A DNA stretch of 51,139 nt from Candidatus Nanoarchaeia archaeon (GTDB lineage: Archaea; Nanobdellota; Nanobdellia; Woesearchaeales; DATDTY01): the NCBI GenBank assembly GCA_035290625.1, contig DATDTY010000067.1, positions 1 through 51,139 on the forward strand, given 5' to 3'. The translations under genes were made by a program, and so were the position numbers. Positions within the stretch are counted from its first letter, which is position 1; every line of letters starts with the position of its first letter. This document shows positions 1 through 43,261 of this stretch, one piece after another. The notes under the pieces are model-generated. The model was given only the letters and a program-made list of their open reading frames with translations, was not told where the DNA came from and ran no database searches.

Positions 1-141
1 TCGCTCGGCAGCGCCAGGTTCGCCATGCGCAAGTCAGGCAGAATAGCGACATTCTCCGAGGGAGGCGACCCTCTTGTCGCTGTGCCGCCGCTCCGTTATA
101 ATGGCTTACAAGAGGGCGCTGCATGACTTTTCAATGCCACC
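1..141. mobile_element. Structured repeat/MITE family A, copy 1 (left end cut by window)
   Basis: Aligns to 3574-3737 and 43098-43261; ends in the right TIR ACTTTTCAATGCCACC. Confidence 0.85.
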
Positions 142-150
142 GGTTCCCCT

Positions 151-295
151 GGCTCAGTAGAAAGTCCGGCATCATTTTTGCGAACTTCTTCAGTTTCATC
201 AGCACTGCTGACAGAGGGTAGGCCCCTTCGGGGGTGTCAGCAATCACAGATACAATCACAAGCGAGCCTGATGCCGATTGACTTTCTACTGAGCC
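151..295. mobile_element. Structured repeat/MITE family B, copy 1
   Basis: Perfect 16-bp TIR GGCTCAGTAGAAAGTC/GACTTTCTACTGAGCC; flanked by GGTTCCCCT (142-150) and GGTTCCCT (296-303); second copy at 17960-18104. Confidence 0.85.
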
Positions 296-380
296 GGTTC
301 CCTGGCTCTGCAGAAACTCTTTTCTCATTTTGGCTGTACCCGCTTATTTGGAAACTTGCTGCTTTAGATTTAACCCAATC

Positions 381-654
381 AACTGCATTCAAAATCTGCT
401 CCGCAGCTGCCGCCAGCTCGCAATATGCTAATCCCTTTGTATAAATCGGCATTCGCCCCGTAAGGGACTTCCCCCCGATGTCGATGCGATGCTTTTGGTT
501 ATTGAAAATTCGGGGTTTAAGACGCGGGGTTTAGCCCGAATTTTCAATCCCGAAAACCGCACGATCAAAAACCCCGACCTTTAGGTCGGGGATTAGTGCG
601 GTTTTCGTTATTTTGCTCGCACAAAAGGCGGCAGCCCTGATTTTGAATGCAGCT
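381..654. mobile_element. MITE-like element C containing nested element D
   Basis: IR CTGCATTCAAAATC (383-396)/GATTTTGAATGCAG (639-652); inner IR GCTGCCGCC/GGCGGCAGC; direct repeat TTAACCCAATCAA at 370-382 and 654-666. Confidence 0.7.
498..610. mobile_element. Hairpin repeat family D, copy 1 (IS200/IS605-type non-autonomous element?)
   Basis: Hairpins ATTGAAAATTCGGG/CCCGAATTTTCAAT and CCCCGACC-TTTA-GGTCGGGG; bounded by GTTA at both ends; second copy at 13115-13279. Confidence 0.75.
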
Positions 655-664
655 TAACCCAATC

Positions 665-679
665 AAAAACCTTATATAA
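665..679 (+). promoter_or_regulatory. BRE-TATA promoter of the GH130 operon
   Basis: AAAAACCTTATATAA upstream of a GAGGTGA SD and the GTG start at 712. Confidence 0.6.
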
Positions 680-3573: not shown

Positions 3574-3737
3574 GGCGCCATTGAAAAGCCGCTCACTTCG
3601 TTCGGCAACGCCGATTTCGCCATGCGCAAGTCAGGCAGAATAGCGACATATCCCCGAAGGTGGCAACCCCCTTGTCGCTGTGCCAACTTCTGTTTCAATG
3701 GCTCACAAGGGGCGTTGCATGACGTTTCAATGCCGCT
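3574..3737. mobile_element. Structured repeat/MITE family A, copy 2
   Basis: Homologous to copies 1 and 3 with imperfect TIRs; compensatory GCAACGCC/GGCGTTGC versus GCAGCGCC/GGCGCTGC. Confidence 0.85.
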
Positions 3738-13114: not shown

Positions 13115-13279
13115 GTTATTGGAAATTCGGGGTTTAAGACTCGGGCTTTAGCCCGAATTTTCAATCCACAAAAATCCAGGATTTTTGGGACGGAAAATTG
13201 CTTTTCAATTTTCCTGTCCCGAAAACCGCACGATCAAAAACCCCGACCTTTAGGTCGGAGATTAGTGCGGTTTTCGTTA
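13115..13279. mobile_element. Hairpin repeat family D, copy 2 (longer, extra internal hairpins)
   Basis: Ends near-identical to 498-610; bounded by GTTA, and the right GTTA overlaps the stop codon of the MBL-fold gene. Confidence 0.75.
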
Positions 13280-13909
13280 CTGGAACTCCCGTACAGCTCC
13301 GCTCTCCATTGGAATAAAATCGATGCCTGCCAGGCAGCTTTTTGGAAGCATATGGCTAGCACCAGGGAATTTCAGCATGCCGTCATGGACTGGGAAGCAC
13401 GCCTTTGGATGCACTTCTTTGGCATAGTCGATCGCCTCTGAAATCCTCATCCAGGGCCCTGCTACAGGCAACGCAAGGATCTCAACTTTTTTCTTAGGGA
13501 CGTAAAATGCATCTCCGGGATAAAAGAGCCTTCCTCCTATCATATAGCCAGTGTTCAAAACATCTGGAACCGTAGTATATATAGGTGCATGCCTTTCTCC
13601 GAAAGCCTCTATCGAAACACCATTTAGAGTTATACTCTGGCCGTGCTCAAGCAGTGAATAGGCAATCCCTGCCTCCTTAAGATGTTTTCCAACTCCTTTG
13701 TTCGTATACACCTCTGCCGAAGGATTTGTCTTCAAGACCTTTTTCAGCGATTCTATATGCATATGGTCAGGATGCTCATGTGTAATCAGGACTGCGTCAA
13801 CATCCGCTTCTGAATTCTGCCTGTCAGTATAGCTTCCCGGATCTGTAAGAACCTTGCGGCTGGCCTCTTCCACAACAAGGCAGCAGTGGCCGATTTTTTT
13901 GATTCTCAT
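13277..13909 (-). CDS. MBL-fold metallohydrolase (UPF0173/UlaG-like)
   Basis: GHCC, TDPG, THEHPDH, YPGD and PVHD motifs. Confidence 0.88.
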
Positions 13910-17959: not shown

Positions 17960-18104
17960 GGCTCAGTAGAAAGTCCGGCATCATTTCTTCGAGCTTCTTC
18001 AGCTTCATCAGCACTGCTGGCAGAGAGTTGCCCCATCCGGGGGTGTCAGCAAACAGTGAAGGAAGCACAAGCGAGCTCGATGCCGATTGACTTTCTACTG
18101 AGCG
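17960..18104. mobile_element. Structured repeat/MITE family B, copy 2
   Basis: Colinear with 151-295; lies between divergent promoters; flanking duplication degenerate at best. Confidence 0.85.
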
Positions 18105-39770: not shown

Positions 39771-39876
39771 AGAAGGTATTCTGAAATCTTGAGGCAACCG
39801 GGTTAAGTCAACACGCGTGTGTTGACTTAACCGATGATTGCAAAGGCTTTTAAATGTAAATGGGATTAGATACTGT

Positions 39877-43097: not shown

Positions 43098-43261
43098 GGT
43101 GGCATTGAAAAGTTGCTCGCTTCGCTCGGCAGCGCCAGGTTCGCCATGCGCAAGTCAGGAAGAATAGCGACATTCCCCGAAGGGGGCAACCCCATTGTCG
43201 CTCTGCTGTCTTATTTTAAGATGGCTCACAAGAGGGCGCTGCATGACTTTTCAATGCCACC
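43098..43261. mobile_element. Structured repeat/MITE family A, copy 3 (complete, with 8-bp TSD)
   Basis: Perfect 16-bp TIR GGTGGCATTGAAAAGT/ACTTTTCAATGCCACC; TATTCTCA at 43090-43097 and 43262-43269. Confidence 0.9.

Follow-up and report, generated by a model that had tools for sequence, protein, structure and literature searches.

At the left end of contig DATDTY010000067.1 of a Candidatus Nanoarchaeia archaeon, a small inhabitant of groundwater, several short structured elements lie directly next to, and in one case inside, each other, with copies of one short sequence in between, which raises the question of how such a cluster came about. The window, i.e. the complete stretch of 51,139 nucleotides analyzed here, corresponds to this entire contig (C67), which is part of an 84-contig, 1.37-Mb assembly with archaeal translation factors. 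The initial annotation had explained the cluster by repeated insertion of four unrelated elements, A to D, into one hotspot, each beside the previous one. According to the present analysis the cluster is real and free of assembly collapse, yet it is not a single hotspot; it is a composite of ordinary element types, for the arrangement of which a cut anchored at the promoter and shared by three families of DDE transposases offers the best explanation.

Architecture of the cluster and contig integrity

The order A, GGTTCCCCT, B, GGTTCCCT, a TIR-like end and C with nested D can be read directly in the sequence, as originally described, and all features lie on the forward strand. Element A (positions 1–141) consists of the right 141 nt of a 165-bp MITE, the left 24 nt of which are found on contig C21; it is 100% identical to the ends of contigs C21, C42 and C45 and harbors an inner stem-hairpin core at 41–85 (covariance model R1, 61.5 bits). 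The middle target copy GGTTCCCCT (142–150) is common to A and B, shows a one-base slip relative to the outer copies and reads identically in contigs from three of the public runs. Element B (151–295) is a complete 145-bp MITE with perfect 16-bp TIRs, 92% identical to its nearest kin and member of a class with mostly 9-bp duplications. It is followed by the distal target copy GGTTCCCT (296–303), which together with the G at 304 would make up the 9-bp duplication of B, and by E (304–370), a lone TIR-like end (304–319) starting with GGCTCTGCAGAAA and continuing into a body without element match. Element C (381–654), delimited by its family end profile, is a 165-bp MITE with its core at 441–489; it is split by element D (503–611) behind the tetranucleotide TTAT (499–502), which is part of C, and is flanked by a 10-bp target duplication without mismatches (371–380 and 655–664).

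To the right a BRE/TATA-like promoter is predicted at 663–679 (profile score 15.6), with its TATA motif 17 nt (10 + 7) from the end of C, and belongs to the intact neighboring gene of a GH130-family glycoside phosphorylase (712–1782; Pfam PF04041, E-value 1.4e-45). The left neighbor, across the putative join to C21, is a leftward VTT/DedA-type gene, and the block likely sits between two divergent promoters, both predicted from their motifs. Further copies of the elements are present in the window at 3574–3737 and 43098–43261 (A), 17960–18104 (B) and 13116–13280 (D).

As the contig starts within a 141-nt repeat common to four contig ends, the array might have arisen artificially during assembly, where a repeat broke the contig. 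However, the inner junctions recur at single-copy depth and without differences across several public runs, possibly including the source sample. The B|E|C|D junctions are bridged by contigs of all four runs and the D|C|flank junction by those of three of the four; the A|B junction is bridged in three of the four as well, by pieces of 67–68 nt with 0 differences, which fall slightly short of the 31-letter bridging rule on the A side. An artefact is therefore given virtually no weight, and the assembly collapse considered in the initial annotation is contradicted by these contigs. Neither an empty allele nor a joint skipping an element was seen in the four public runs examined. In the search for an orthologous empty locus a 760-nt query retrieved only D-like or short matches, in three of 40 relatives.

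The terminus of C21 consists of GGTTCCCT and, behind it, the left end of an A copy of identical sequence. Of the four contig ends sharing the A repeat, only the joining of C21 and the window yields a duplication, while the identical A ends of C42 and C45 have no duplication in common. Judged by this duplication, C21 would connect to window position 1; in that case the target is present three times, and the question of the initial annotation whether a copy precedes A to the left of the window is to be answered in the affirmative. The second identical A copy (C42:1–165, C45:1–141) is flanked on either side by promoter-like motifs and lacks a duplication; it is possibly a recombinant of two copies.

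Identity of the elements and candidate transposases

A (165 bp), B (145 bp) and C (165 bp without D) possess TIRs of 14–16 bp and no ORF of 100 amino acids; each of them, as well as D, is multicopy in the genome. A genome catalogue by end pattern comprises 128 TIR-paired elements in 12 end classes. Within one mismatch, 8-bp TSDs are found in 17 of 27 copies of the A class and in three of 36 copies of the B class, in which 14 further copies show 9-bp TSDs; 9-bp TSDs also occur in the C (3/10), F (6/8) and G (7/23) classes. The possibility raised earlier, that other copies lack flanking duplications, is not borne out for the A, B and C classes. Many duplications are decayed, however, and in 69 of 126 elements neither an 8- nor a 9-bp TSD is present within one mismatch. 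With respect to C, the annotated limits agree with the family end profile, but the 13-bp duplication ascribed to it does not, because the apparent repeat (370–382, 654–666) includes decayed terminal bases of C, and the true one measures 10 bp. Such decayed tips (window 381–382; also on C19 and C6) often equal the bases after the far duplication, which lengthens the apparent direct repeat.

The four elements had been regarded as mutually unrelated, which is correct for D, an element of different kind, but not for A, B and C, which share a 45-nt inner core, evident in C and weak in B. A covariance model of this core, trained on 20 copies from outside the B and C classes, detects C with an E-value of 4e-4 and the B of the window weakly (0.14). 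It also matches some B copies and copies in four of five other genomes, which were picked for carrying stacks. The cores of the window's B and C escaped an HMM based on sequence alone (E-values 0.88 and 2.8). The nearest inner relatives of C (on C8, C2, C44 and C69) bear a different TIR class; hence, ends and cores are exchanged or co-convert. Genome-wide, many A and B copies contain hairpin modules of about 40–57 nt at fixed internal positions. In the shared core (41–85 and 441–489; L135–L154 and L160–L189) a third run of pyrimidines shows parallel-register covariation with two hairpin pairs, namely T with a T-A pair in 10/10 and 7/8 cores and C with C-G in 56/64 and 62/68. This is the pattern expected of a short triple helix, which it suggests weakly, there being few independent events and unrelated columns of equal strength.

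The TIR-like end of the E type occurs at just 12 sites among 2.63 million non-repeat positions, several of which are real element ends. No element matches the body of E, whose best score (29) equals the mean of shuffled sequences (29). A decayed B was ruled out, as the body scores like the shuffles, and so was a transposase end, for which foreign loci gave no match. E is likely a relic of an older insertion.

D had been placed in one kind with A–C. By its sequence, this 109-bp element is to be classified as IS200/IS605-type, PATE-like and non-autonomous, thus as HUH-type: it has two subterminal palindromes, starts after TTAT in 10/10 copies, ends in TTAT in 9/10 and is inserted without duplication, since C, once D is removed, can be aligned through the insertion point with kin that lack D. 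Its nesting in C was recognized correctly; its limits have to be shifted from 498–610 to 503–611 by the same alignment. Rfam at gathering score gave no match, the best hit being HgcC over the palindrome of D (23.5 versus 50 bits). The palindrome of the resident TnpA elements recurs at both ends of D. On the 5′ side of each D palindrome stand four bases that fit TTAT in the way that those of the resident elements fit TTAG and TCAC, under a presumed position-by-position guide pairing rule deduced from the AAAG/TTAC pair in PMC3201880. According to the same source, IS608 inserts 3′ of a guide-chosen tetranucleotide with no DNA gained or lost. The resident TnpA elements share the D-like palindrome but use TTAG/TCAC sites, and an autonomous TTAT/TTAT partner of D was looked for without success. 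D resembles IS608 and the PATEs of Haloquadratum (PMC3119063, available portion) in the lack of terminal inverted repeats and duplication, the subterminal palindromes and the fixed tetranucleotide. Nesting of mobile elements within each other is described there as well. However, the table in that portion contains MITEs inserted into PATEs and no PATE inserted into a MITE, whereas here the PATE-like D resides within the MITE C. Two of the ten D copies are located inside MITEs.

The genome encodes IS6, an IS5-type element, IS1634, an IS481-like element and Y1 TnpA genes; a transposase bearing A-, B- or C-type ends is absent from the 84-contig assembly, which is possibly incomplete. The sole IS5-type gene found in the assembly has ends that match those of A at 9/16 positions only, and its protein scores 98.7 bits with the NF033579 model (cut-off 140); nonetheless, A has identical, recent copies. 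Homologues of this protein are present in 73 of 401 genomes of the order and at 55 metagenome loci. Among the full-length IS5 elements, L052 from another genome of the order matches the ends of A at 15/16 positions (its TSD could not be read), L037 those of B at 14/16 with a 9-bp TSD, and L044 those of the C class at 15/16; L048 and L047 are likewise near-exact to B and the C class, respectively. These ends suggest that A, B and C, as non-autonomous MITEs, are likely moved in trans by IS5-family DDE transposases. Like the IS5 family (IS903-like, NF033579) and its MITEs they exhibit 16-bp TIRs starting with GG, 8–9-bp duplications and derivatives sharing the ends only, and the full-length partners encode a single DDE transposase of about 290 amino acids. 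Unlike in that family, docking takes place at a fixed position upstream of TATA boxes and one structured core extends across many end classes. The DDE signature read from TIRs and TSDs therefore stands for A, B and C, with the IS903/IS5 type as the fitting one among those named; it does not apply to the HUH-type D, nor to an IS1 or IS1595 origin, for which the profiles PF03400 and PF12762 gave no match in the genome. IS6, an initial candidate by its end sequences, was rejected as mover of A–C, the resident IS6 end pattern matching none of the three. The IS481-like transposase L195 (C24:15370–16323) apparently starts in a frame different from the rest of the ORF, reflecting either a programmed frameshift or a broken copy.

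Insertion offset upstream of TATA motifs

A TATA-like motif is found 12–22 nt outward on one side of 86/126 elements, compared to 12% of intergenic sites. A BRE/TATA profile trained on genes remote from repeats detects no promoter site above its threshold in 36/126 elements. According to this profile, element end and TATA are separated by the duplication length plus 7: elements with 8-bp TSDs have the TATA at exactly 15 in 16/24 cases (none at 16, four without site) and those with 9-bp TSDs at exactly 16 in 14/33 (none at 15, 14 without site). IS5 elements from other genomes follow the same rule in 18/19 cases (8/9 at 15, 10/10 at 16). For the IS481-like element, copies of which were paired across contig ends via their 14–16-bp duplications, the TATA is located at 21–23 in all seven TSD-paired insertions and in six of them at exactly TSD plus 7. 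The resident IS6 has it at 15 in 4/4 insertions, corresponding to plus 6 for the 9-bp duplications of the three pairable ones. In the window, A conforms with 8 + 7 (TATA at 15, on C21) and C with 10 + 7. None of the ten D copies is near a TATA box, and the HUH-type D thereby serves as a built-in negative control for the offset rule. At window positions 39801–39832 a 32-bp mini-element composed of two IS6 ends only is likewise situated at the TATA offset.

Since the offset tracks the duplication length, the constant is the promoter-side cut. Insertion might nevertheless be random, with selection sparing only copies just upstream of promoters and stacks arising as chance pile-ups in scarce intergenic DNA; in agreement with this, a crude mask puts the coding share of the genome at about 87% and no fresh, unselected insertions are observable. 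However, the peak is one base wide and shifts with the duplication length (15, 16, 21–23) though the promoter-side sequence stays intact, positions 23–40 are hardly used although the null offers them, and D lacks such a bias. As the duplication restores the promoter-side sequence, selection cannot act on the cut position, which argues for targeting. Random insertion is thus rather improbable, and promoter targeting is likely mechanistic.

As to what positions the cut, the main rival to a host protein is that the transposases themselves read DNA sequence or shape, such as BRE/TATA-like A-tracts. The flanks do have in common an A-rich run followed by the TATA motif, and an AT-rich motif is the reported target of ISH6 (PMC3942029). 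This is, however, difficult to reconcile with the fact that three unrelated families, whose targets measure 8–16 bp, coincide at the promoter-side edge and not at the target center, and that the duplicated bases are without consensus. Direct reading is accordingly considered unlikely, though less so than random insertion, and it is probably promoter-bound TBP/TFB that would set the cut as a ruler.

In the preferred reading, the DDE transposases of this archaeon would cut the target with the promoter-side nick fixed 6–7 bases upstream of TATA, at a position probably determined by promoter-bound TBP/TFB. If the cut is fixed, the same bases are duplicated again by the next element, which comes to sit nearest to the promoter; each newcomer would therefore land between promoter and previous element, re-duplicating the same 8–9 bases and displacing older elements away. 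The proposed nick would account for the stacking of A, B and C: A and B would queue behind the leftward promoter on C21, C would have docked likewise at the opposite, rightward promoter, and D would have been added afterwards and independently, likely through an IS200/IS605 TnpA that inserts single strands 3′ of TTAT. This explanation as a whole, with IS5-moved MITEs stacked by a fixed promoter-side cut and D separate, is assigned a probability of about 0.75. It has its direct basis in the element limits, the duplications, the offset rule, the IS5-matching ends and the clean TTAT insertion of D, from which we infer the transposases, the arrival order, the C21 join and the role of TBP/TFB. A more general and tentative proposal, held with slightly less than even confidence, is that the TBP/TFB-bound promoter could act as a dock for unrelated DDE families, cut on the promoter side one BRE-length upstream of TATA for any target length, so that queues are ordered and datable.

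In yeast, Ty3 and Tf1 undergo promoter-tethered, safe-harbor integration set by the transcription machinery; these are eukaryotic retrotransposons with known host partners, whereas the host partner here is a proposed one. The bacterial Mutator-like elements TnGBS, ISLre2 and ISKra4 insert 15–17 bp upstream of a core promoter element, a fixed distance tied to a lineage-specific transposase motif, according to the accessible part of Guerillot et al. 2014 (PMC3942029). The fixed distance upstream of a core promoter element is common to both systems; theirs, as far as that part of the paper goes, are bacterial sigma-A promoters, those described here archaeal TATA promoters used by three families (IS5, IS6 and IS481-like). 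The likeness is one of behavior only, as the partners score as IS5, IS6 and IS481 types and no p-MULT member, i.e. no Mutator-like transposase, is among them. TATA-anchored targeting is absent from the available parts of a MITE review (PMC10969869) and an IS6 review (PMC7986276), and a literature search of titles and abstract starts, with most subscription journals outside its coverage, returned no precedent for a TATA-anchored archaeal IS. MITEs, nesting and promoter-targeted transposons are each already known; unusual is that one offset rule (duplication plus 6–7) holds for IS5, IS6 and IS481-like elements alike within a single archaeal genome. Should the cut be set by the transcription machinery, this would explain how a compact genome tolerates more than 120 elements; insertion sites would then mark active promoters in uncultured archaea, the effect could be tested simply in vitro by combining TBP, TFB and a small transposase, and a natural safe-harbor insertion tool is suggested.

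Stacks and order of arrival

The repeated use of the GGTTCCCT target noted initially is confirmed. It does not extend to all four elements, as there are two docking sites, the left one used by A, B and the relic E, the right one by C. For the left queue the arrival order E, then B, then A is suggested by the lone end of E, the 92% identity of B to its nearest kin and the identity of A to other copies; A is likely the youngest. The middle target copy requires one slippage event, which is a point against the model.

The genome contains four tight stacks versus 0.15 expected at random. This excess, together with the position of the TIR-like end E directly behind the target, would also be compatible with transposases that target the end of a resident element, as IS26 does, and the initial annotation had likewise made the previous element the attractor. 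Yet most elements are single and still keep the same TATA offset, which points to the promoter as the anchor. Promoter anchoring alone predicts 8–32 re-used sites, more than the four tight stacks seen, so that with free promoter choice no extra hotspot is needed; moreover, targeting by IS26 makes no new duplication (PMC7986276, available part). Resident-end targeting is hence regarded as very unlikely, and anchoring by the promoter is retained.

In the other three stacks of the genome (C1, C33 and C25/C50) the cleaner duplication belongs to the element nearer the promoter. The 9-bp duplication in the C1 stack takes in the last base of the older neighbor, the same one-base overlap as proposed for B and the G at 304. 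Across 400 genomes the stack pattern is not enriched overall (23 matches in 20 genomes versus 19 control genomes); one match stems from genome G315, and no claim is built on it. Eight of the 23 matches have a gap of 8–9, three of them without partner end and set aside as chance, and eight, in five genomes, have element ends on both sides. Of these eight stacks in the five other genomes, two fit the age order, one (L157) does not and five are undecided. The same three-copy queue is found at L132 in another genome. At the metagenome locus L061 a full-length IS5 lies 8 bp from an apparent other IS5-type element with a B-like TIR, thus forming an IS-on-IS stack.
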